A stretch of 59,302 nt of DNA from Lysobacterales bacterium (GCA_026996795.1 JALWKC010000089.1:1-59302); one strand, 5' to 3'. Counted from the first letter of the stretch, positions 4,460 through 50,214 are shown. A program made the numbers and translations. Notes: generated from the sequence alone by a model not told the origin.

Positions 4460-4471
4460 AGCCAGGGTTCC

Positions 4472-4637
4472 TTAGGGAAGCTCTGATTGAATCTGGACGA
4501 AGCAGGTTATGCCGGAAATGTTTGAGAACAAGGCGAAGTTCGCAGCCAATAGCCGGCTAATCGCCAGGACTTCAACGCAGTTATCGGACATTTCAGGTAT
4601 GAGAAGCGAGTTCATGATTCGATCAGAGCTTCCTTGG
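4472..4637 (+). mobile_element. MITE-like repeat, subfamily A, copy 1 (166 bp including TTAG/TTGG flanks)
   Basis: Terminal inverted repeats GGAAGCTCTGATTGAATC / GATTCGATCAGAGCTTCC. Near-identical to 48515-48680 and to the reverse complement of 38554-38720. Sits in the maf-rng spacer. Confidence 0.85.
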
Positions 4638-4748
4638 TGAGTAACGGCTTTGGCCATTGTAACAAACCCGCGCCCGAAGGCAGGCACGATGGGTATGGCT
4701 ATCAAGGGAGTCTCTCAGGCACCACCGGTTTGGCTGTGTTGCGAGGAA

Positions 4749-14153: not shown

Positions 14154-14489
14154 ATGGCAGCGAAATTTGTGGTGACAACCGGCGCAGACGGCAAACGCTA
14201 TTTTGTGCTCAAGGCCGGCAATGGCGAAGTCATTTTGCAAAGTCAGGGTTACAAAACCGAGTCCGGTTGCATCAATGGCATCGAATCCGTGCGCAACAAC
14301 GCGCCCAACCCCCAGCGCTTTGAGTGCCGGGAAGCCAAGGATGGGCGAACCTACTTTGTACTCAAGGCCAGTAATGGCCAGGAAATTGGCCGCAGCCAGA
14401 TGTACAAAACCGATGCCGGCTGCAAAAACGGCCTGGAATCCGTGGCCAGGAACGCCGCCGAAGCGCGGGTGGAAATCGTCGAGGACTGA
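14154..14489 (+). CDS. YegP-family protein (tandem DUF1508 repeats)
   Basis: 111 aa made of two internal repeats (YFVLKAGNGEVILQSQGYKTESGCINGIESV / YFVLKASNGQEIGRSQMYKTDAGCKNGLESV). Strong Shine-Dalgarno. Confidence 0.85.
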   Translation: MAAKFVVTTGADGKRYFVLKAGNGEVILQSQGYKTESGCINGIESVRNNAPNPQRFECREAKDGRTYFVLKASNGQEIGRSQMYKTDAGCKNGLESVARNAAEARVEIVED

Positions 14490-14515
14490 GTTTCCTCAAG
14501 ACGGAATCTCTTGCC

Positions 14516-14682
14516 CTAAGGAAGCTCTGATTGAATCTGGCGCGGACAGATTGGAACGTAAATTGTTCAGATCAAGGCGCAAACCACACGCAATAGCGAG
14601 CTATTGTGAAGATTTGCAACGCAGAAATGGACGATTTTATGCCGCAAGATACCGTGTCACGATTCAATCAGCGGCTCCCTAA
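14516..14682 (+). mobile_element. MITE-like repeat, subfamily B, copy 1 (167 bp, CTAA/CTAA flanks)
   Basis: Same termini as subfamily A but diverged arms. Matches 28711-28878 and the reverse complement of 26336-26504. Confidence 0.85.
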
Positions 14683-15607: not shown

Positions 15608-15683
<76 letters not shown>

Positions 15684-15863
15684 ACACTTTTCTAGTACTT
15701 GAGCAGTCGAAGAACAGCCAGAGGAAAGGCCGCTTGATGAATAGGGCAGCAATGAAACACTGTTCAATCGCCGATCAACTCAAGGGCGTGCAGTATAGCC
15801 AATCGCCCTATTTCCATCAAGCCCTTTTGTGCGGATTTTTCACCGATTGACCGGCTGCCTGCG

Positions 15864-16014
15864 ATATTAACCTGGCATCGATATAGATGATGCTCAGGGC
15901 TTCAAGCCTGCCTCGGAACAAGGCATCGCTTGCAGCCAATGGTTGTTCCATTGGCAAAAGCGATAACACCGGGCCGGGGCAGGCTTGAAGCCCAACTCAT
16001 TGATATAAAAAGGC
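15864..16014 (+). repeat. Type-2 structured repeat, copy A (one TTAACCTGGCATC terminus, nested stems, no second terminus)
   Basis: ATATTAACCTGGCATCGATATAGATGATGCTCAG matches the left end of 19979-20165. Contains a 15-bp stem GGCTTCAAGCCTGCC/GGCAGGCTTGAAGCC. The segment AAGCCCAACTCATTGATATAAAAAGGC matches the reverse complement of 20114-20140. Confidence 0.65.
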
Positions 16015-16032
16015 CCGCCATCAGTGCGAGCC
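16005..16032 (-). terminator. Rho-independent terminator after the secreted-protein gene
   Basis: Minus strand reads GGCTCGC-ACTGATG-GCGGGCC followed by TTTTTAT. It lies 27 nt past the stop at 16059 and its T-run merges into the type-2 repeat. Confidence 0.5.
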
Positions 16033-16058
16033 TTTCAGAGGTTTTATCAGCGCTTTAT

Positions 16059-17327
16059 TCAGCGCCGGGCAAAGCCCTGACCCGACGGTCGCGGTTCTTG
16101 GGGCAAAGCCAGGACCGTGATGCCAGCGGCCACCGATTGCACCGGTGCCAGACGGCTTTGATCCCGCAATTGCACCTGACGAATTTCAAACGGTGCCTTG
16201 AGGCCGGATTTGGCCAGCAAACCCGCGTCTATGGGTAAGCTCAAGGTCTGAGCACCCTTCGGCAACCAGGCGGCAGACTGGGCCACGGCAAAGGGCACTA
16301 CCTTGTTGTTGGCGTCACGGCCGAATAACACGCCCCGCACTTCGAAGCGGCCTTCCTGAGCCACGGTGACACCGATATTCACGCGCGCGGTTCCACTTTT
16401 ATCACGCGTGACATCCAGCTGGCCATTAAAGCCGGCCACCGGCAAGTTGACGGCAAAGGCCGTTTGTGCATCGCGCATGACCTTGTCGTTGGCGGCAAAA
16501 ACGTGGGCAGTCCACAGGCCATTGGCCAGGCCTGTCAGCTCTGAAACCGGCAGCGAAGCCTGAAAGCGGCCATCCGGCTGGCGGGTAAATTTCAGTTCGC
16601 CGGCCACGCGGCCATCGGGCAGGCTGACGTATCCCTGCCATTGGGCGTTCTGGGTGCTTTGGCCATCGCGCAAGGCGGCCACCACCTGAATCGGCTCATT
16701 GGCATTGAAGGTGGCCTTGCTGGTGCCCAATTCCAGTACCTGGCTGGATTGTGGCTCAAACACGTGCACCACCACCGGCACCTTCTCATCCAGGCCAGTC
16801 ACTTTCAATACCGCTTTTCCAGCCGGCACATTCGCCTTGAACGCCACCGTATTCTGTGGGAAGGGCACGCCGGTTTTTTGCACACTTTGGGCGTCGGCAA
16901 AAACATCCAACGGAATGACCTCGCCTGCCGCTTGCAATTGCACCTGACCGGCATTGAGACTCACTGCCTTGCCGGTGGACAAGGGACTGATGCGGATCAC
17001 CGTTTCGCCGCCAGTCACTGGCAGTTTCAGACCCGCAGCCAGCTTGTCACCGGTACTGTCCAGCCAGTATTGGCGGCTTTTTTCGGTGTAAACAGCAGGT
17101 GAAAAGTCCAATGCCTGATCCGCGTCAATGGCATAGCTGAACACCACCGGATCACGGCTGGTGTTGATCAGGGGGGCGTCCACCTGGGTGGATTTTTGCA
17201 ACAGACTGTCGTCCATTGTCACCGGTACATTCCATTTGGCCTGAGGCCCGGCAGCGGCAGCGATAGCGGAAATGGCAAAGCCAAGGGCAAGGGCCACCGT
17301 GTGTTTGGGTGTGAAATTGATTTTCAT
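16059..17327 (-). CDS. Secreted protein of unknown function (signal peptide; size and composition reminiscent of DUF4785-type proteins)
   Basis: 422 aa. N-terminal signal MKINFTPKHTVALALGFAISAIAAAAG. Beta-rich and Ig-like in appearance. The family assignment is from memory only. Confidence 0.6.
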   Translation of the reverse strand: MKINFTPKHTVALALGFAISAIAAAAGPQAKWNVPVTMDDSLLQKSTQVDAPLINTSRDPVVFSYAIDADQALDFSPAVYTEKSRQYWLDSTGDKLAAGLKLPVTGGETVIRISPLSTGKAVSLNAGQVQLQAAGEVIPLDVFADAQSVQKTGVPFPQNTVAFKANVPAGKAVLKVTGLDEKVPVVVHVFEPQSSQVLELGTSKATFNANEPIQVVAALRDGQSTQNAQWQGYVSLPDGRVAGELKFTRQPDGRFQASLPVSELTGLANGLWTAHVFAANDKVMRDAQTAFAVNLPVAGFNGQLDVTRDKSGTARVNIGVTVAQEGRFEVRGVLFGRDANNKVVPFAVAQSAAWLPKGAQTLSLPIDAGLLAKSGLKAPFEIRQVQLRDQSRLAPVQSVAAGITVLALPQEPRPSGQGFARR

Positions 17328-17339
17328 GTCAGCAGCTCC

Positions 17340-18194
17340 TTAAATGTCGTTGCGCAGAATAACATCGAGGCCAAAGCATTGGCGACGGCTCTGGTTATGG
17401 CTCAATGGCTCACCACCGGCCATGCGGCTTTTATCCCGGAACCAGGTGGTGCCTGCCCCTTCCTGGGAGGAGCACTCAAGGAAACCATCGGAGCAACTGC
17501 TCAACCAGGCCTGGGTGACTTCCAGCCCCACATTCAGGGCATAACCGCCGCAATAGCTGTCGCCATCCCACACGGCCGTTTCCACATCGGTACCGACCAC
17601 GTTCCAGAAGCCTTTGGGCAACGCCGGCCGGCCGGAAGTGCCATACAGGTAGTTGGCGTTGTAGTAAGCCATCCATGAAGTCTGTTGCATGCGCACGGCA
17701 TCGGACTTGTAGCCCAGCAGCCAGCCCAGGGAACTTTCAAACACATTACCCTGCATGACCGCATTGGCCAGCGGCGTGCCCTTGGAAGAAGGCGCGAGCG
17801 CATTGACCCAACGAATTTTGTTGATGATATTGGGGTAACGGCTGTCCCAGGTGGGGTTGGACATGATCCAGCGCATGACATTGCCGCCATTGGAGTGCGT
17901 AATCACCACCAGGTCGGTAATGTTCTTGTTGTTGATAAACGTGGTCAGCTGACCGGCCAGACAACCGGCGGCCTGGGAATCCCACATGTATTTTTCAAAA
18001 TTGCAGTTAATGACCACGTAATTGCTCTGATTGGGCAAACCCTGGCGAATGGAATTGACCATGCCCCATTGCCAGTAATCAGCGGCGGCATTGGTTTGGT
18101 GGCCCGTGCCATGCACCAGCGCAACGCCAGTGGCAGCATGGCCCACGGGAACCAGAAAAAAGGCGGCGATAAACGCCAGGCGAGAAAGTTTCAT
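17340..18194 (-). CDS. Secreted lipase/esterase-like alpha/beta hydrolase
   Basis: Signal peptide MKLSRLAFIAAFFLVPVGHA and nucleophile-elbow-like motif VITHSNGG. I prefer ATG 18194 (GGGAGG Shine-Dalgarno 8 nt upstream) to the TTG at 18197 used by the track. Confidence 0.7.
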   Translation of the reverse strand: MKLSRLAFIAAFFLVPVGHAATGVALVHGTGHQTNAAADYWQWGMVNSIRQGLPNQSNYVVINCNFEKYMWDSQAAGCLAGQLTTFINNKNITDLVVITHSNGGNVMRWIMSNPTWDSRYPNIINKIRWVNALAPSSKGTPLANAVMQGNVFESSLGWLLGYKSDAVRMQQTSWMAYYNANYLYGTSGRPALPKGFWNVVGTDVETAVWDGDSYCGGYALNVGLEVTQAWLSSCSDGFLECSSQEGAGTTWFRDKSRMAGGEPLSHNQSRRQCFGLDVILRNDI

Positions 18195-18516
18195 CAAATA
18201 GACCTCCCTATTTTGATCGTGATGGTAAGAAAATGCGCAGTGTGAGTTATGGAGTTATTGTTATTATTCGTATTTGGCGCATGGATTATGCGTCAGCCGG
18301 GCGTGGGATTCCGTGACGCAGGCCACACTTTACACCAGCTCCACCCCTTTTTTCAAACGTTGGTTTGGAGCACATGCGCTATCTTTCAAAATTCGTATGC
18401 ACGGTGGCTTTTTGAAAGGAAAAAACCACAGGAATTCAGGCAGCAGTCTTCGACTAAATTGTGCAGGAAGCCGGTGTGGCATGTGATGCCCCGAAGTCCA
18501 TCGGACAGGGCTGGCA

Positions 18517-18547
18517 CGAGTTCATGATTCGATCAGAGCTTCCCTAG
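18517..18547 (+). repeat. Truncated right end (~30 bp) of a subfamily-A MITE
   Basis: CGAGTTCATGATTCGATCAGAGCTTCCCTAG matches the last 30 nt of copies 1 and 6. Its CTAG supplies the TAG stop of the oxygenase-like gene. Confidence 0.7.
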
Positions 18548-19260
18548 CGAACGCGCGGCCCTTGCTGGACGTCCATTTTCGGGTGACGGAACCAGTAATT
18601 GGTGGCCACGGTGATCCGGGTGCCATCGCCTTTGTAGGGGCTGACTTCGTGCATCAGCCAGGAAGGGAAAATCAGCAGCTGGCCGGCCTGTAACTTGAAG
18701 ACCTGGTGCCCGAAGCCAAAAGGCGCTTTGGTCATTTGCAACAAGCCCGGATCCAGGTATTGATTGGCGGCGGGATTGGGGTGGAAAAACCGGGTCACGC
18801 CCGAATCCACCAGCGTTTGCCCCGGCGCTTCCCCGCTGTCCACGCAATACACCGCAGACCAGCTGGCCATGGGGTGATTGTGGTTCACAAAATAACCGTT
18901 TTTGCGTGTGATGTGGAACCAGGCGTCGGCGTAGACTTCAAATTCGTCCACGGTTTTACGTTTGTACTGGTTGACCATGCCGACCATTTCCAGCACGTGA
19001 TCGGTGATGGCGTTTTTCAGGCGCTGTACGCACGGTTCTTCCCAGGAAAACAGGTCGAAATGGCTCTCGAACAGCTCATCGGTGGCCACGGAGTTCTGGT
19101 TCGGATTCCGGTAATGAGTTCCTTCGGCCTCGCGTGCCAGAAACAGCGCTTTGAGTTCGGCGTTGAGGGACTCGGCATCCGGCAATGCCGCCACCCCGAA
19201 GGGCACGGCAAAGGCCGGAATAATTTGAATAGCCGGTGGCTGTTTCATGCGTGTTGCCAT
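18544..19260 (-). CDS. Putative 2OG-Fe(II) oxygenase-like protein (TIGR02466-type)
   Basis: 238 aa. Has an HxH...H arrangement (VNHNHP ... LMHEV) and an overall layout like the conserved hypothetical 2OG-FeII_Oxy_5 family. An alternative ATG lies at 19248. Confidence 0.65.
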   Translation of the reverse strand: MATRMKQPPAIQIIPAFAVPFGVAALPDAESLNAELKALFLAREAEGTHYRNPNQNSVATDELFESHFDLFSWEEPCVQRLKNAITDHVLEMVGMVNQYKRKTVDEFEVYADAWFHITRKNGYFVNHNHPMASWSAVYCVDSGEAPGQTLVDSGVTRFFHPNPAANQYLDPGLLQMTKAPFGFGHQVFKLQAGQLLIFPSWLMHEVSPYKGDGTRITVATNYWFRHPKMDVQQGPRVR

Positions 19261-19318
19261 TTCCTGGCCAAGACTGGCCGCGTTATCCTCAAGGAGGCAA
19301 GAGTCAGAAGCGATGTCA

Positions 19319-19358
19319 TTATTAACTTGGCATCAATATAGGCGATGCCAGGTTAATA
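19319..19358 (+). repeat. Type-2 repeat, copy B (40-bp minimal palindrome of the two termini)
   Basis: TTATTAACTTGGCATCAATATAGGCGATGCCAGGTTAATA. The TAA stop of the phosphatase gene (19353-19355) lies inside it. Confidence 0.7.
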
Positions 19359-19967
19359 CCGCTTTTTTGTGCTTGTCGTGGTGGCAGCCTTGACCGGCAG
19401 GTCTTCCAGTGTCACCACCATTTTCTTGCCCAGCAATCCTTCCAGCCCCGGCGGCCACCAACCAAAAGCCCGGGCGCGATCGAGTGCTTCGTTCACCGGC
19501 ACGCCTTTTTCATTGATCAACCAGGCAATGTAGGCCTCAGAAGCGCGATGACCGGAGCGGCAGTGCATCAATACCTTGCCCTGCTCACCGGCTAATGCCT
19601 GAGCCAGGGCCTTGGTCTGCTCCGGGCTGCGCGGAAATTCCTTGCCACCGATAGGGATCATCACATATTCAATACCCATCTTCTTCAATTCGGCGGCTTC
19701 ATCAAAACGCAGCGGCTTCATTTCTTCCGGTGTTCTGAAATTAATCACTTTGGTGATGCCGGCCTGCTTCAATCGTTGCAGGTCCGGGTAAAACGGCTGC
19801 GGCCCGATAAACAGGTTCTGATCGGCCGGGTACACCATCTGCAGGTAATCCGGGCGTGGCGGCGCCTTGACCGGTCGCGGTTGGGGCTGAGCCAACGCGG
19901 ACAGGCTGAACACCAGCACGACCAGCACGGCCAGCGGGGAAAAACGAAAACGACTTGGGTTGTGCAT
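19353..19967 (-). CDS. Exported Cys-based (CX5R) phosphatase-like protein (DSP/DUF442-like)
   Basis: Trimmed to ATG 19967 (GGAG 8 nt upstream); the longer track ORF runs into a repeat. Signal-like N-terminus FSPLAVLVVLVFSLSALA. Active-site motif HCRSGHRAS. Confidence 0.75.
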   Translation of the reverse strand: MHNPSRFRFSPLAVLVVLVFSLSALAQPQPRPVKAPPRPDYLQMVYPADQNLFIGPQPFYPDLQRLKQAGITKVINFRTPEEMKPLRFDEAAELKKMGIEYVMIPIGGKEFPRSPEQTKALAQALAGEQGKVLMHCRSGHRASEAYIAWLINEKGVPVNEALDRARAFGWWPPGLEGLLGKKMVVTLEDLPVKAATTTSTKKRY

Positions 19968-19978
19968 AAGTTTCTCCG

Positions 19979-20165
19979 TTATTAACCTGATATCAATATA
20001 GGCGATGCTCAGTCGTGATGCGCTGTTTGCCAGCAAGGCATCAACTCACCGCTGTAGTCATTCTACAGCAAGAGTTGATAACGCAGTCTGGCGGACAGCG
20101 CATCGCGGCTGAGCCTTTTTATATCAATGAGTTGGGCTTCATCTATATTGATGCCAGGTTAATAA
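19979..20165 (+). mobile_element. Type-2 structured repeat, copy C (187 bp, complete, with inverted termini)
   Basis: Termini TTATTAACCTGATATCAATATAG ... CTATATTGATGCCAGGTTAATAA. Long internal stem GCTCAGTCGTGATGCGCTGT / ACAGCGCATCGCGGCTGAGC enclosing a double hairpin. Confidence 0.75.
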
Positions 20166-24911: not shown

Positions 24912-26336
24912 TTACTTTCCGGTTTTCAGGCTGGGCACTTGTTTGGTAACTGCCGCCTGGTTATTGGTTGTCGTGTTATTCGTGACCAGTGACTGCCGCA
25001 CCGCGTGTTCAAAAGCCTCACCGCGTTGAGCGTAGTTGGCAAAGGCATCAAAACTGGGCGCGCCGGGAGAAAGCAGCACCGTGCCGCCTTTGGGCGTATG
25101 AATCTGCGCCAGCGCCACCGCTTCGGCCATGTTTTCTGCCCGCACAATGCGCGAAAGCAGCGGCTGTTGCTTCAAGGCCGCCAGGATACGGCTGGCATTT
25201 TCACCGGTCACAATCAGACACGCCGGTGGATTGGCGGCAATGGCCCGGGCAAATTCATCCCAATCCAGCTGGCGATCGTAGCCGCCCAGAATAAGGCCGG
25301 TGTTTCGCGGCTCAAGAGTGGCCAAAGCCGCCAGGCTGGCGTGAGGGGTGGAGGCAATGGAATCGTTGATCCAGTGCCACTGGCCGATGCGTCCCAAAGG
25401 CTGCAGGCGATGCGGCAAGGGCTGAAAACTTCGCGCCAATTCCAGGGCCTTTGCCACCGGCAGACCCAGTCCGTCAATGACTTCAAGCACTGCGGCCAGG
25501 TTTTGCAGGTTATGGCGGCCAGGCAAAACCCAGTCGCTGGCCCGGAAGACGGCCTGCCCCTGACACCGTACTTCATCGCCACTCACCTGCCATTGGGGTG
25601 TGCGGGCTTTTTTTAACCATGCCGGTGTGGCCAGACCCGCACCATGCAGACGGGACTCAAAATGCCCCAGTGGCTGACCCAGCACCGCCTGGCGGGCGTT
25701 TTCCAGCAACCGCAGCTTGTCGGTGTAATAGCGTGCTTCGCTGCCATGCCAGTCCAGGTGTTCTGGGAAGAGGTTCAACAACAACGCCACATCGGCAGAA
25801 ATGGTGCCGTCGGCGGCTTGATAACTGGAGGTTTCCAGCACCGTCCAGTCAGCCGGAAATTCCACCGTTTCCAGCAAGGCCACGCCAATGTTGCCGGCCA
25901 GGTTGACAGAAAAACCCAGTCCACGAAGAACGTGGGCCAGCAGGCTGGCGCTGGTGGATTTGCCCTTGGTTCCGGTGACCGCGATCACGCGACCGTGACG
26001 GTGGTAGGCAAACCACAGGGCCGTTGCCCCAACCATGGGCACCGACACGGTATCTGCCGGTGGCTGGTATGGGCTGATGCCCGGTGACTTGATGACCAGA
26101 TCAAAAGCATTCAGGCCATCGCTGGAAACCAGCTCGGTACAGAATTCCCAGTCACAAGCCGGAGCATCTGCCGGGGCCGGTTTTTCTTCGGGCCGGCAGA
26201 AAACCGTGAACCGGCAGCCGGGATGAAAACGGGCCAAATACGCCGCAGTGGCGCGGCCTTCCACACCAAACCCCCACACGGCAATGCGCAACTTCGACAA
26301 GTCCGCCGGGTCTGGAGGCAAGGGGGTTTCAGTCAT
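24912..26336 (-). CDS. Stand-alone MurD-like Mur ligase (candidate MurD2, UDP-MurNAc-L-Ala:L-Glu ligase)
   Basis: Rossmann-type N-terminus IAVWGFGVEGRA and Mur-ligase P-loop VTGTKGKST. It is not in a dcw cluster. I trimmed it to ATG 26336 because the 11 upstream codons of the track ORF lie inside a MITE. Confidence 0.65.
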   Translation of the reverse strand: MTETPLPPDPADLSKLRIAVWGFGVEGRATAAYLARFHPGCRFTVFCRPEEKPAPADAPACDWEFCTELVSSDGLNAFDLVIKSPGISPYQPPADTVSVPMVGATALWFAYHRHGRVIAVTGTKGKSTSASLLAHVLRGLGFSVNLAGNIGVALLETVEFPADWTVLETSSYQAADGTISADVALLLNLFPEHLDWHGSEARYYTDKLRLLENARQAVLGQPLGHFESRLHGAGLATPAWLKKARTPQWQVSGDEVRCQGQAVFRASDWVLPGRHNLQNLAAVLEVIDGLGLPVAKALELARSFQPLPHRLQPLGRIGQWHWINDSIASTPHASLAALATLEPRNTGLILGGYDRQLDWDEFARAIAANPPACLIVTGENASRILAALKQQPLLSRIVRAENMAEAVALAQIHTPKGGTVLLSPGAPSFDAFANYAQRGEAFEHAVRQSLVTNNTTTNNQAAVTKQVPSLKTGK

Positions 26337-26504
26337 TAGGGAAGCTCTGATTGAATCGTGACACGGCATCTTATGGCGTAAAATCGTCCATTTCTGCGTT
26401 GCAACCCTTCACAATAGCCTGGCTATTGCGTGCGGTTTGCGCCTTGAACTGAACAATTTTACACGACAATCTGCTCGCGCCAGATTCGATCAGAGCTTCC
26501 TTAG
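26336..26504 (-). mobile_element. MITE-like repeat, subfamily B, copy 2 (inverted; TTAG/TTAG flanks)
   Basis: Its reverse complement aligns end to end with 14516-14682 and 28711-28878. It occupies almost the whole spacer between the PP-loop gene and the Mur-ligase gene. Confidence 0.85.
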
Positions 26505-26539
26505 GAGATTCCGCATGCCGGCGCAGGAAAAGCATGACG

Positions 26540-28583: not shown

Positions 28584-28710
28584 GATCTTGGCTCCCGGCC
28601 CGTTTGAGGCCACTGTTTAACTTGAAGCCAAGTTTAGCCAACCGTCAATGAATAAAAGCTGAATAATGAAAAAGCGGATTGACCCTATTTACTACAGGAT
28701 GAATTGATCA

Positions 28711-28878
28711 CTAGGGAAGCTCTGATTGAATCTGGCGCAAGCAGATTGTCGTGAAAAATTGTTCAGTTCAAGGCGTAAGCCGCACGCAATAGCAAGCTAT
28801 TGTGAAGGTTTGCAACACAGAAATGGACGATTTTACGCCGCGAGATGCCTGGTCACGATTCGATCAGAGTTTCCCTAG
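28711..28878 (+). mobile_element. MITE-like repeat, subfamily B, copy 3 (168 bp, perfect CTAG/CTAG flanks)
   Basis: CTAG-GGAAGCTCTGATTGAATC ... GATTCGATCAGAGTTTCC-CTAG. Lies between the glycine-zipper gene and selD. Confidence 0.88.
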
Positions 28879-28991
28879 TGAAAAGGCTCTTCCCCTGATT
28901 TGACTCTTTCCAAAATTAACATCTTCTATGGAGAAGCCGCATTTGCCTTATAATTCCCTCCGTTCCAGCCAACGCAGCGAGTCGTTATTCC

Positions 28992-36513: not shown

Positions 36514-38573
36514 GTTCAGTACTGAAGCGATCAAGGCACTGGCGACGAACGACTGGCAAAAACCCCGCCGGTGGCACCGGTACGGCACTCACCGCACCCC
36601 AGATGTTGTGGCTGCTGCTGGGCATTGCCCTGGCCATTCTGCCCCACTGGAGCAACCTGCCGACGTGGTTCTGGCCAGTGGCTGCACTGGTGTTGCTGTG
36701 GCGATTGCACTCACTGGAAAAACCGTTGCCGCGCTGGCAGGTGCTGCTGGTAACCAGCGCGGTGTTGCTGGCCATAGGCGTGTCCGCCGGTCGCGGCCTG
36801 AACCGGGAAATTGCCATCACGATTCTGGCCAGCATGGCGGTCCTCAAAACCCTGGAAACCCAAAGGCGCCGGGATGCATGGGTGTTGATCACACTGGGCT
36901 TTTTTCTGGTCATGACGCGTTTCTTTTATGGCCAGGACATGGTGTTGCTGCCTTGGCTGCTTCTCACGGTCGCCACCTTGACCTACGCGCTGTTGTGCCT
37001 CAACCAATGCCATGAGCCCTATCATGCGTCAAGGGCCTGGTTCGCCCCCAAAGTCCTGTATCAGGCCCTGCGTTACCTGCTTTTGGCCGTGCCAGTGGCC
37101 GCTGCCCTGTTTCTTTTTTTTCCACGCCTCGCCTCGCCGCTTTGGGGCTCACCGGAAATGTTTGGCCAGGGCAAAACCGGTCTGGGTGACAGCATGAGCC
37201 CCGGCTCCATTGCCGAGTTGTTTATGGATGACAGTCCGGCCATGCGAGTTAATTTTGCGGGCAAACGCCCTGATGCGGCGCAACTCTACTGGCGCGGTCC
37301 AGTGCTTGAGTCTTTTGATGGCACCACTTGGCACGCCATCGAATACTCCTTTGCCCGGCGTCCACCACCGCTGGTGGACCCACAGGCACAGGTAGCCTAC
37401 GATATTGAACTGGAACCCCACGGCCAGCATTTCCTGCCCGTACTGGACTATCCCTACCGCGTGCCCGAAAACGCCTTTTTGATGCCCGACCTGCACGTTC
37501 AACAAGCCACGCGCGTGACCCAACTCAAACATTATCGCGCTGTTTCACAAACCGTCACGCCCTTGCCGGATACCCTCCCGGCCCGACTGGCCCAGCGGCT
37601 GGTGATGCTGCCACGCCACGCCAACCCGAAAACCCGCGCCCTGATCAAACGCTGGCAGACACAAACGCCCGATAGCCTGGCGCTTGTTGAGCGAATTCTC
37701 ACCTGGTTCAATCAGGAAAACTTCATCTACACATTTACCCCACCACCGCTTAAAGGCGACACGGTGGATCAGTTTTTGTTTGAAACCCAGTCGGGTTTTT
37801 GCGAACACTACGCTTCAGCATTCACCGTCATGATGCGCATGGCCGGAGTGCCTGCCCGGGTGGTGACCGGCTATCAGGGTGGGCTGGACAACGGCAACTA
37901 CTGGCTGGTGCGGCAATCCGACGCCCACGCCTGGAGCGAAATCTGGCTCAAAGGGCGGGGCTGGCTGCGGGTGGACCCGACCGCGGCGGTAGCGCCTTCG
38001 CGTGTGCGTTCCGGTGCCCGCAGCTGGATGGATTCCGGTCGCACCTGGTACGACTACGGCTGGTTGCATCGTCTGCAACTGTCCCTGGACAGCTGGCGCT
38101 ATCGCTGGAATCGCTGGTTGCGGGATTACAATCAGGAGACTCAGCGCAAGCTATTGGAATCCCTTGGGGTGGATGACGACCAGCCCGCCGGCATGGCCTG
38201 GCTGATTGCCGGCGCCATTCTCACCAGTGGCCTGCTGGGCCTGTTCGCGCTGGGCTGGTCTCGACAGAAACGGCGGGTGCCGGATGCGGAAAAAATCTTT
38301 CGCCAGCTGGAAAAACAACTCAGCCGCCTGGGGCTGCCACGCGCGGCCCACGAAGGCCCGGCGACGTATCTGGAACGGGTCGCCCGACACTGGCCAAAGG
38401 CAGCAGCCAATGCCCGCCGTTTCGCGCGCGAATACGAAAGGTTGCGTTACGCGCCCGATGCGCACACGCTGACGGCCGCAGACAAGCCGCTGCAACGCCT
38501 GCAACACGCCGCTAAGAACCTGATAGCGCTTGTCCGCGGGACTTCAATGCCCGTTAAGGGAAACCCTGATTGA
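36510..38573 (+). CDS. tgpA: Transglutaminase-like membrane protein TgpA (DUF3488 + transglutaminase core + DUF4129-like tail)
   Basis: 687 aa with a polytopic N-terminus. Cys-His-Asp triad context GFCEHYA / DAHAWSE / RVDPT. The last 5 codons and the stop lie inside a MITE. Confidence 0.85.
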   Translation: MSSVLKRSRHWRRTTGKNPAGGTGTALTAPQMLWLLLGIALAILPHWSNLPTWFWPVAALVLLWRLHSLEKPLPRWQVLLVTSAVLLAIGVSAGRGLNREIAITILASMAVLKTLETQRRRDAWVLITLGFFLVMTRFFYGQDMVLLPWLLLTVATLTYALLCLNQCHEPYHASRAWFAPKVLYQALRYLLLAVPVAAALFLFFPRLASPLWGSPEMFGQGKTGLGDSMSPGSIAELFMDDSPAMRVNFAGKRPDAAQLYWRGPVLESFDGTTWHAIEYSFARRPPPLVDPQAQVAYDIELEPHGQHFLPVLDYPYRVPENAFLMPDLHVQQATRVTQLKHYRAVSQTVTPLPDTLPARLAQRLVMLPRHANPKTRALIKRWQTQTPDSLALVERILTWFNQENFIYTFTPPPLKGDTVDQFLFETQSGFCEHYASAFTVMMRMAGVPARVVTGYQGGLDNGNYWLVRQSDAHAWSEIWLKGRGWLRVDPTAAVAPSRVRSGARSWMDSGRTWYDYGWLHRLQLSLDSWRYRWNRWLRDYNQETQRKLLESLGVDDDQPAGMAWLIAGAILTSGLLGLFALGWSRQKRRVPDAEKIFRQLEKQLSRLGLPRAAHEGPATYLERVARHWPKAAANARRFAREYERLRYAPDAHTLTAADKPLQRLQHAAKNLIALVRGTSMPVKGNPD

Positions 38574-38720
38574 ATCGTGAACTCGCTTCTCACACCTGAA
38601 ATGTCCGATAACTGCGTTAAAGCCCTGACCAATAGCCAGCTATTGGCTGCGAACTTCGCCTTGTTCTCGAACATTTCCGACATAACCTGCTTCGTCCAGA
38701 TTCAATCAGAGCTCCCCTAA
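38554..38720 (-). mobile_element. MITE-like repeat, subfamily A, copy 2 (inverted; TTAA/CTAA flanks)
   Basis: Its reverse complement aligns with 4472-4637 and 48515-48680. Confidence 0.85.
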
Positions 38721-38764
38721 GCGAAAACCGGGCAACTGAGCCATCGAACGGACTGTCTGCCTGG

Positions 38765-47390: not shown

Positions 47391-48518
47391 ATGGCTGAAA
47401 AGAAAATTGGCGGCGCCGGCTTGCGCGGGCAAATCGCCGGACAAACCGAACTGTGCACCGTGGGTGTTTCCGGTACCGGACTGACCTATCGCGGCTACGA
47501 CATCGCGGAACTGGCCGACAAGGCCGAGTTTCTGGAAGTGGCCTGCCTGATTCTTTATGGCGAATTGCCCACCCGCGAGCAACTGGAAGCCTATCGGGCC
47601 AAAATCAAGTCCCTGCGTGGTCTGCCCAAAGAACTGAAGGCCGCGCTGGAAATGATTCCGGCCGACGCCCACCCCATGGACGTGATGCGCACCGGCTGTT
47701 CTTTTCTGGGCAACCTGGAGCCGGAAAAGGACTTCTCCCAACAGCACGACGTGGCCGATCGCCTGCTGGCAGTGTTCCCATCCATCATTGCCTACTGGTA
47801 CCGGTTTACCCACGACGGCGTGCGCATCGAAACCGAAACCGATGACGACACCATTGGCGGGCATTTTCTGCACCTGTTGCGCGGTGAAAAACCCAACCCG
47901 CTGCACGAGCGGGTCATGGACGTGTCACTGATTCTGTATGCCGAACATGAATTCAATGCCTCCACCTTCACCGCGCGCGTGGTGGCCTCCACCCTGTCGG
48001 ACATGCATTCGTGCATCACCGCAGCCATCGGTGCCCTGCGCGGCCCGCTGCACGGTGGCGCCAACGAGGCAGCCATGGACATGATTGCGCAGTGGAATTC
48101 GCCCGAAGAAGCCCGTGCCGCCATTCTCGACAAACTGGCCAACAAGGAGCTCATCATGGGTTTTGGCCACGCCGTGTACCGCACCAGCGACCCGCGCAAT
48201 GCCATCATCAAGGGCTGGTCAAAAAAACTGGCTGAAGAAGTGGGTGACGAGGTGCTTTATCCGGTCAGCGTTGAAGTGGAAAAGACGATGTGGGAAGAAA
48301 AGAAGCTATTCCCCAATGCCGACTTCTTCCACGCTTCGGCCTACCATTTCATGGGCATTCCCACTCAATTGTTCACGCCCATCTTTGTCATGTCGCGCGT
48401 CACCGGCTGGGCCGCCCACGTGATGGAGCAGCGCGCCAATAACCGCATTATCCGTCCCAATGCCGAGTACGTCGGGCCGGAACCGCGCCGTGTCACCCCC
48501 ATTGAAGAACGCCATTAA
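47391..48518 (+). CDS. prpC: 2-methylcitrate synthase
   Basis: 375 aa, citrate-synthase family (GFGHAVYRTSDPR). Its TAA stop lies in the flank of a MITE. Confidence 0.93.
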   Translation: MAEKKIGGAGLRGQIAGQTELCTVGVSGTGLTYRGYDIAELADKAEFLEVACLILYGELPTREQLEAYRAKIKSLRGLPKELKAALEMIPADAHPMDVMRTGCSFLGNLEPEKDFSQQHDVADRLLAVFPSIIAYWYRFTHDGVRIETETDDDTIGGHFLHLLRGEKPNPLHERVMDVSLILYAEHEFNASTFTARVVASTLSDMHSCITAAIGALRGPLHGGANEAAMDMIAQWNSPEEARAAILDKLANKELIMGFGHAVYRTSDPRNAIIKGWSKKLAEEVGDEVLYPVSVEVEKTMWEEKKLFPNADFFHASAYHFMGIPTQLFTPIFVMSRVTGWAAHVMEQRANNRIIRPNAEYVGPEPRRVTPIEERH

Positions 48519-48680
48519 GGAAACTCTGATTGAATCTGGACGAAGCAGGTTATGCCGGAAATGTTCGAGAACAAGGTGGAGTCCTTGCCAATAGCGAGCT
48601 ATTGGCAAGGACTTCAACGCAGTTATCGGACATTTCAGGTGTGAGAAGCGAGTTCACGATTCGATCAGAGGTTCCCCTAA
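48515..48680 (+). mobile_element. MITE-like repeat, subfamily A, copy 3 (166 bp; TTAA/CTAA flanks)
   Basis: Fills most of the prpC-prpD spacer. Its central stem GTCCTTGCCAATAGC/GCTATTGGCAAGGAC is a perfect 15 bp. Confidence 0.88.
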
Positions 48681-48705
48681 CCGCAACCCATACAGGAGCC
48701 AACCC

Positions 48706-50172: not shown

Positions 50173-50214
50173 GGAAATGAAAAAAGGGCCAATATTGGCC
50201 CTTTTTTCATTTCC
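50173..50214. terminator. Bidirectional rho-independent terminator (42-bp perfect palindrome)
   Basis: GGAAATGAAAAAAGGGCCAATATTGGCCCTTTTTTCATTTCC, between the convergent prpD and tpm genes. Confidence 0.8.

Follow-up and report, generated by a model that had tools for sequence, protein, structure and literature searches.

An undescribed IS630-type miniature inverted-repeat element, present as three decayed copies in a gene row of a hydrothermal-vent Lysobacterales genome

In the pneumococcus, the repeats of the short element RUP resemble those of IS630-Spn1, and RUP inserts at TA (PMC2229807, PMC3049150). In Anabaena and Nostoc, the MITE (miniature inverted-repeat transposable element) Nezha has repeats matching those of ISNpu3, an insertion sequence (IS) of the IS630 family found only in another species (PMC3184786). 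Here we describe a family of structured repeats in a 59,302-nucleotide stretch of DNA from Lysobacterales bacterium (GCA_026996795.1, JALWKC010000089.1:1-59302), called the window below, in which three copies, A, B and C, lie between positions 15,864 and 20,165 near a gene for tRNA-Thr. The host belongs to an uncultured hydrothermal-vent lineage of Gammaproteobacteria. The repeats are very probably three shortened copies of a non-autonomous MITE derived from, or mobilised by, an IS630-family IS. This reading is supported directly by the repeat family and its anatomy, the match of its ends to those of IS630 elements, the TA duplication seen at filled and empty sites, the dispersal of the family and the ancestral state of the surrounding genes. 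The family is an undescribed one of a well-known class, seen here as three decayed copies, and reveals no new mechanism.

The likeness to RUP and IS630-Spn1 extends to a short non-coding element with IS630-like inverted repeats, insertion at TA, many mostly intergenic copies, a tight fold with paired ends and a proposed mobilisation in trans (PMC2229807, PMC3049150). However, RUP is an AT-rich element of 107 bp with a single hairpin and its IS in the same species, whereas the present element measures 283 bp, has two long diverged duplicate hairpins plus a module, and occurs in vent Gammaproteobacteria, with no partner IS found in the same genome. The two are set apart by these descriptions, and no similarity is expected beyond family-level ends. 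Nezha likewise has a stable secondary structure, and orthologous sites with and without the element were the basis for inferring its recent mobility (PMC3184786). It differs in host phylum, length (130-170 bp) and sequence, and neither modular deletion derivatives nor a 36-bp mini form have been reported for it. Neisseria has the Correia elements (NEMIS) and the pneumococcus has SPRITE; these are also small inverted-repeat elements at gene ends, which can carry promoter-like or terminator-like features and fuse with reading frames (PMC2229807, PMC3049150, PMC3184786). Their termini and hosts are unrelated to the present ones, and effects on transcription have been demonstrated for Correia elements, whereas here we infer them. 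A literature search with the terminus string returned only unrelated mammalian primer sequences.

The interest of the family is modest and lies in its two-hairpin modular architecture, its complementary deletion derivatives, a possible self-propagating mini form and its fusions with a stop codon and a terminator. Its relevance is mainly to annotation: such elements break short-read assemblies, inflate intergenic spacers, can change the 3' ends of genes by at least one codon and are mistakable for island boundaries or operators. The locus also makes a clean teaching example, with natural filled and empty sites, three deletion derivatives, a stop-regenerating insertion and a terminator fusion.

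Termini and anatomy of the element

The copies in the window and their parts are as follows.

15865-16014, minus strand: MITE copy A, 150-bp remnant with a single end (96% by blastn over positions 133-283 of the full element at locus L001)
Parts of copy A, minus strand (alignment): TA 15865-15866; inverted repeat from 15867; hairpin 2 at ~15897-15993; central module 15986-16014
19320-19358, no strand assigned: MITE copy B, mini form; TA, 20-nt inverted repeat, GGC, 13-nt truncated inverted repeat, TA
19980-20164, plus strand: MITE copy C, 181 bp flanked by TA at both ends (alignment with full copies, fold, empty sites)
Parts of copy C, plus strand: TA 19980-19981; inverted repeat from 19982; hairpin 1 at ~20012-20112; module 20113-20141; inverted repeat 20143-20162; TA 20163-20164

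As reported in a preliminary description of this DNA, the 23-nt terminus TTATTAACCTGGCATCAATATAG occurs four times in the window: at 15864 (plus strand, two mismatches), 19319 (plus, one), 19979 (plus, two) and 20143-20165 (minus, none). No match to it was obtained in 100 dinucleotide-preserving shuffles, and the chance expectation is 0 for its count as well as for that of the 29-nt module GCCTTTTTATATCAATGAGTTGGGCTTCA, found exactly at 20113-20141 (plus strand) and 15986-16014 (minus strand). The occurrence of this module on opposite strands in copies A and C had been noticed before, with its place in copy A given two nucleotides off, as 16016-15988. A repeat search of the whole window revealed no copies of the terminus family beyond A, B and C, and its earlier characterisation as a structured family with defined termini, unrelated to the other repeat family of the window, stands.

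Six loci from the distribution scan described below carry two inverted termini 276-283 bp apart. When the window copies A, B and C were aligned with six full copies, they proved to be complementary parts of one 283-bp element. The full element, of ~283 bp, consists of TA, a 20-nt terminal inverted repeat (TTAACCTGGCATCAATATAG, part of a ~31-bp terminal stem), hairpin 1, the central module GCCTTTTTATATCAATGAGTTGGGGC, hairpin 2, the inverted repeat and TA. Against this form, copy A has one terminus plus internal modules (family reference positions 133-283), as had been stated, and is without hairpin 1 and one inverted repeat. Copy B (19319-19358) is indeed made of end sequences only, but not of two whole termini, the second one being truncated to 15 nt (GATGCCAGGTTAATA). 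Both ends are present in copy C (19979-20165), which had been taken for a complete element; it corresponds to positions 1-162 plus 262-283 of the full form, with the ~99-bp hairpin 2 deleted.

The full element is predicted to fold into a Y shape with the ~31-bp terminal stem and two hairpins of ~100 nt, at a minimum free energy of -187 kcal/mol compared with -84 ± 6 for shuffled sequences (z = -18 to -22); the central module is AT-rich and unpaired in the fold. Its two halves are identical at 92 of 131 positions, with conserved islands (AAGGCATC and GATAACGC) between differing stems, and when the two hairpin types were folded as an alignment, 11 of the 28 predicted pairs were kept through changes on both sides. 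In view of these two-sided changes, hairpins 1 and 2 are diverged duplicates that stayed palindromic. The paired changes come only from the comparison of hairpin 1 with hairpin 2, as covariation within the family is uninformative (copies 93-98% identical); they do not prove a selected RNA function, and templated repair within palindromes could account for them. Full copies in the metagenome-assembled genome (MAG) of Lysobacterales bacterium S144 are 96-97.5% identical to one another. The element encodes nothing, and 12 of 13 copies showed no reading frame that spans them. Only one of its faces is terminator-like, with hairpin 1 followed by TTTTTATAT. In a covariance-model search of Rfam 15 (E-value mode), only the tRNA-Thr passed and no family matched the element; a match of hairpin 2 to a miRNA (E = 0.07) is at chance level.

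Empty sites, dispersal and the IS630-family partner

At the site of copy C, a 95% relative (L027) has the empty sequence GCGCATTATTTGCTGCTATT-TA-ACGGAGAAACTCATG, where the window reads GCGCATTATTTGGCGTTATT-TA-(TTAACC...GGTTAA)-TA-ACGGAGAAACTTATG. Contigs of related strains from two other vent metagenomes (X3 and X4) join 19979 to 20163 and skip 183 bp, that is, the element plus one TA, with two letters fitting either side of the joint. Precise empty and filled sites that differ by the element and one TA show duplication of a TA target and recent insertion. The X4 strain has none of the copies A, B and C, and in a further relative (L028, with a DUF4785 protein 78% identical to that of the window) no terminus was found at up to four mismatches anywhere in 17 kb.

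The distribution of the family was scanned with the degenerate terminus TATTAACYTGRYATCRATATAG against one genome per species, which gave 17 loci in four other genomes, among them 13 in the Lysobacterales bacterium S144 MAG and single loci in another Gammaproteobacteria MAG, a Thiolapillus brandeum MAG and a Filomicrobium MAG. At least 14 copies of the element lie at unrelated sites in the related MAG, where both full-length and 40-bp mini copies occupy unrelated intergenic positions, and more were found in two other Gammaproteobacteria MAGs. The preliminary description had raised the question of whether copies sit at gene ends; they do, and each of the 13 copies that could be placed is intergenic. 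Word depth in run X1, where the window sequence is present, was ~50 over unique sequence and 1,025-1,428 (20-30 times as much) over the MITE bins. Scans of the JGI metagenomes and of IMG/VR with the degenerate 22-mer terminus gave 0 matches in each; the family is either rare outside a few vent and marine Gammaproteobacteria or lost from those assemblies. A lone right-hand inverted repeat (CTATATTGATGCCAGGTTAATA), with no recognisable partner or interior, was seen at positions 463-501 of L010 (Gammaproteobacteria MAG WFVH01); this is probably a shorter remnant with a single end, comparable to copy A.

Insertion sequences of the IS630 family have the terminus as their inverted repeat. The preliminary description had held that the repeat would lose its interest as a new one if it turned out to be the end of a known IS, and by that standard its novelty is removed. 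At L017 (Filomicrobium), the terminus (22 of 22 positions) and an inverted copy (19 of 22) lie 1.1 kb apart and flank an open reading frame (ORF) of 343 aa, the product of which contains DDE_3 (1e-39) and HTH_23/32/33 domains (Pfam), the architecture of IS630/Tc1-mariner. This transposase has more than 7,900 relatives at E <= 1e-60, which carry the name 'IS630 family transposase' where they are named, as do plasmid-borne relatives less than 60% identical to it. The elements at L031-L035 are ~1.09 kb long, with transposases 86% and 81% identical and ends 1-3 nt off those of the MITE (one mismatch per end in L031-L033), and the terminus motif is kept in a Thiodiazotropha copy and in a Hahella chejuensis copy (L037; transposase 69%). 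TA is present on both sides of every complete IS copy; the right end of the Thiodiazotropha copy was not identified. Wherever a right end was seen, the stop codon of the transposase abuts or nearly abuts the right repeat. Compared with this clade (L017, L031-L035, L037), with ends TA-TTAACCNGGCAT.AATATAG, the MITE has identical or near-identical terminal 20-22 nt and the same flanking TA, but it shares the ends only, the IS being ~1.09 kb long with a 343-aa DDE_3/HTH transposase.

We infer mobilisation in trans, in which a transposase of the IS630 type would bind to the inverted repeats, excise the element and insert it at a TA dinucleotide, duplicating the TA. Three such insertions very probably took place in this lineage at intergenic TA sites of an old syntenic gene row, and each would later have been shortened by deletion between short direct repeats across a hairpin.

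Several points weigh against the derivation from, or mobilisation by, an IS630-family element. A tblastn search with the L017 transposase against the window and all MITE-bearing loci found none, and X1-X4 hold only distant IS630-like fragments, none of which covers the ends of an L017-type IS; what matches this IS in the vent metagenomes is limited to patches in conserved catalytic regions, at less than 90% identity. IS copies are often lost from MAGs and short-read assemblies. The closest IS whose ends match comes from an alphaproteobacterial MAG, and the internal hairpins of the MITE have no counterpart in the IS, so that the MITE is not a simple internal-deletion derivative of it. Full copies at L009 (1297-1298) and L011 (366-367) have TT instead of TA at one flank, which reflects either a mutated duplication or an imprecise target. 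Finally, the search pattern itself required the TA seen at one end of each MAG copy; the unbiased evidence for TA duplication is that of the empty sites, which concerns one locus in three independent sources, the sites of A and B being less clean.

Deletion derivatives at the three sites

Copy C sits 4 nt upstream of the Shine-Dalgarno sequence of a phosphatase gene. Its deletion junction, GGGCTTCA/TCTATAT, falls between GCTTCA, where hairpin 2 starts, and GCATCA, which immediately precedes the right repeat, and hairpin 2 would have been lost by a microhomology deletion between these two motifs. A Logan contig of the same organism breaks off inside copy C.

Copy A is found at the other end of the row, in the following surroundings.

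16007-16032, minus strand: intrinsic terminator of the DUF4785 gene (fold; orthologous terminators in L028 and L029)
15792-15820, minus strand: tRNA-Thr promoter, TTGATG-17-TATACT (conserved in the window, L028 and L029; context, not part of the element)
15608-15683, minus strand: tRNA-Thr (TGT) (ARAGORN; Rfam tRNA, 73.5 bits; context only)

The ancestral DUF4785 terminator has the stem-loop GGCTCGC-ACTGATG-GCGGGCC at 16012-16032, and its T-tract TTTTTATAT, which extends as far as 16003, now passes without a break into the MITE module. The fold bears out the earlier observation that the copy A module doubles as the T-tract of a terminator, the stem-loop being that of the upstream gene and conserved in relatives: L028 has the orthologous terminator GCCCGCC-GCTGT-GGCGGGC-TTTTTT, and L029 also has a terminator at the same place. 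A consensus terminator scan missed both this terminator and the MITE hairpin with its T-tract owing to its stem and loop limits, and folding and comparison with relatives were used. The tRNA-Thr promoter starts 44 bp past the end of copy A, which simply lies between terminator and promoter; the adjacency to tRNA-Thr noted earlier is incidental.

Copy A is absent from L028 and L029. In the X4 strain, 15845-16006 is replaced by 21 nt, giving GGCGGGCCTTTTT-TA-TTGCAGG (minus strand), and this empty site puts the target TA of copy A directly after the T-tract of the terminator. Nine nucleotides are common to the terminator plus TA (GCCTTTTTA) and the MITE module (GCCTTTTTATA), and the GCCTTTTTA repeat is taken to be the deletion junction of copy A. 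A deletion between the shared 9-nt repeats would have removed hairpin 1, one inverted repeat and one TA; such a deletion yields exactly the present sequence of copy A, the stem followed by the module's TTTTTATAT.

Copy B folds into a perfect stem of 15 bp. The TAA stop of the phosphatase (19353-19355, minus strand) lies inside it, as had been noted, and this codon and the preceding Tyr codon (19356-19358) are made of the end of copy B and the duplicated TA, the minus strand reading AAG CGG TA/T TAA CCTGG...CCAAGTTAA/TA ATG ACA. With the element and one TA taken out, the sequence reads AAG CGG TAA TGA. The phosphatase genes of relatives end in TAA at the insertion point, and in the X4 strain 19308-19399 is replaced by 40 nt, the reverse complement of which contains ...AAAAGCAG TAA GG.... 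From these comparisons, copy B appears to have entered the TA of the original TAA stop of the phosphatase and, because the element starts TTAA, to have recreated a stop one Tyr later.

Four unrelated sites in the related MAG, flanked by TA (L003, L004, L007 and L014), carry the same 39-bp mini form, which brings the mini copies to five, at unrelated positions in two genomes. Of these, two lie in stop codons, the copy at L004 likewise giving ...TAT TAA (Tyr-stop) to an open frame. The L014 copy is identical to copy B at 40 of 40 positions, at a locus that is not orthologous to that of the window, and the two share a C-to-T change seen in none of ~20 long-copy ends. The mini form corresponds to a deletion between GATGC direct repeats in ...ATAGGCGATGC/TCAG and ...ATTGATGC/CAGG; copy B would have been reduced to its ends by deletion between these two repeats or, alternatively, might have arrived already as a 36-bp mini element. 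We suggest only tentatively that the 36-bp end-only form (40 bp with the TAs) could be a transposing lineage itself and not a recurrent deletion scar; the rival explanation is that full copies have repeatedly undergone slippage between their two GATGC repeats. If the mini form does transpose, it would be about the smallest element moved by a transposase of the IS630/Tc1-mariner type, and its TTAA start would let it land harmlessly in TAA or TAG stops, adding one Tyr and a new TAA.

In addition to a MITE origin, the copies might have been retained because they were co-opted, A as part of the DUF4785 terminator, B as the phosphatase stop codon and C as an RNA structure within the thioredoxin-phosphatase transcript, setting the level of the phosphatase. 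The T-tract that the copy A module supplies after the conserved terminator stem, the stop codons supplied by copy B and at L004, and an ORF at L011 that extends seven codons into the element would fit such a role, as would the terminator-like face of copy C, which is on the plus strand, antisense to the thioredoxin-phosphatase unit, while that of copy A is in sense, at a gene end. Nevertheless, retention of this kind is unlikely: relatives do without the copies, a T-tract was already part of the ancestral terminator, the ancestral gene ended in a TAA of its own, and two orientations are far too few to show selection. The orientations of A and C are also compatible with purifying selection against polar insertions, of which two cases prove nothing.

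Gene row, other explanations and other repeats

All genes lying between the copies are encoded on the minus strand, and they are followed by a thioredoxin-TPR gene.

16059-17327, minus strand: DUF4785 secreted protein (Pfam)
17340-18197, minus strand: lipase-like hydrolase, weakly DUF7379-like (Pfam)
18544-19260, minus strand: 2OG-Fe(II) oxygenase (Pfam)
19353-19967, minus strand: phosphatase, BLH_phosphatase/DSPc-like, 204 aa (Pfam; L018 gene call; orthologues in conserved synteny)

An exact-protein look-up of the window proteins returned only the same organism (L018 and L019), and the long-ORF version of the oxygenase was absent from the records. Orthologues of the phosphatase were located on contigs of relatives at 95, 86, 78 and 75% identity. 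The order pseudouridine synthase - esterase - NifU - thioredoxin - phosphatase - oxygenase is kept in L020-L026 with spacers of 28-78 bp, and four relatives (L020, L023, L025 and L028) have thioredoxin - phosphatase - 2OG oxygenase without the repeats. L028 shows the full order of the window, from Mur ligase to PdxA, without any copy of the terminus, continuing past the oxygenase with lipase-like - DUF4785 - tRNA-Thr - methyltransferase - DUF1508 - LptD - SurA - PdxA. In GCA_054038215.1, the lipase-like and DUF4785 genes lie beside tRNA-Thr (L029), and thioredoxin - phosphatase - oxygenase, followed by MetRS, are on another contig (L021); this split places the lineage-specific breakpoint between oxygenase and lipase-like gene and not at any MITE copy. 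Judged by this gene order, the four-gene row is ancestral and no cargo, and the MITEs are later arrivals in its spacers. The preliminary description had placed the copies correctly between genes; its further claim, that they bracket and subdivide a four-gene block, fails because repeat-free relatives have the same order.

In three lineages (L021, L023 and L025), small variable ORFs and MetRS come after the oxygenase, where the window and L028 have lipase-like - DUF4785 - tRNA-Thr. The spacer at this synteny breakpoint (18198-18543) carries a solo end of the other repeat family of the window.

The position of the copies, at both ends of and within a four-gene row beside a tRNA gene, could suggest that they are the boundaries of a mobile gene cassette or islet at tRNA-Thr, similar to a composite transposon, and MITE-bounded composite structures have a precedent in other families (bioRxiv 10.1101/2025.11.05.686661). 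Such a cassette is highly improbable, since the gene order of L028 is the same, all four genes and tRNA-Thr included, without any terminus, three further relatives keep thioredoxin - phosphatase - oxygenase with the same short spacers, and the only rearrangement seen among relatives does not have its breakpoint at a copy of the MITE. Moreover, copy A is without the outer end that a composite unit needs, the strains differ by single elements and not by a block, and there is no anomaly in G+C content (0.53-0.59 for the block, 0.573 for the whole window). Pfam searches revealed no recombinase among the block genes, and the whole-window repeat search no tRNA-derived repeat.

Equally hard to sustain is the idea that the palindromic terminus is an operator through which a transcription factor co-regulates the neighbouring genes. 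Copy B, located between two genes, does form a palindrome that is perfect (15+15, spacer of 9 nt), and copy C lies just upstream of a ribosome-binding site. However, the same sequence is found in other genomes beside unrelated genes and at the ends of transposase-bearing elements, it is accompanied by TA duplication, and it is absent from the orthologous spacers of close relatives, where conserved regulation predicts its presence. A local duplication confined to this locus, which the preliminary description had allowed for and which would agree with all window copies lying within 4.3 kb, is ruled out by the 17 loci in four other genomes and by the high word depth in the source metagenome.

A REP, BIME or REPIN assignment, which calls for GC-rich palindromes of 20-40 nt that cause no target duplication and go with a RAYT (IS200/IS605-like) transposase, was also considered and rejected, the inverted repeats here being AT-rich and IS630-like and the TA duplicated; a RAYT gene was not searched for.

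The other repeat family of the window is a second, MITE-like one (TAGGGAAGCTCTGATTGAATC..., ~170 bp, with ends (T)AGGGAAGCTCTGATTGAATC), more abundant here than the IS630-type MITE and also present in the Lysobacterales MAG. Its six copies are the following.

4471-4640, 14515-14682, 26333-26505, 28708-28881, 38553-38721 and 48512-48682: copies of the ~170-bp family (whole-window repeat search)

The solo end of this family, at 18517-18547 (to 18550 in the repeat search), overlaps the TAG stop of the 2OG oxygenase gene, and in L027 a full copy lies in the 3' end of the phosphatase gene and gives it its TGA stop. Several X1 and X4 contigs from other sites join an end of the ~170-bp family (...TTCCCTA; 18546/18547) directly to the start of the IS630-type MITE (19318-19320), which shows that insertion of the latter has taken place repeatedly at the terminal TA of the ~170-bp family or beside it; insertion at these ends recalls the preference for IS elements reported for RUP. 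At L005 and L012 the two families lie less than 120 bp apart. Both have been active in the lineage recently, or were until the strains diverged by ~5-8%, and might be used as strain markers.

Two further repeats were noted in the window. A perfect 42-nt palindrome at 50173-50214 (GGAAATGAAAAAAGGGCCAATATTGGCCCTTTTTTCATTTCC) resembles a bidirectional intrinsic terminator. A 105-nt direct repeat, 72% identical between 14198-14302 and 14351-14455, corresponds to the two DUF1508 domains of a 111-aa protein and is that of an ordinary tandem-domain gene.

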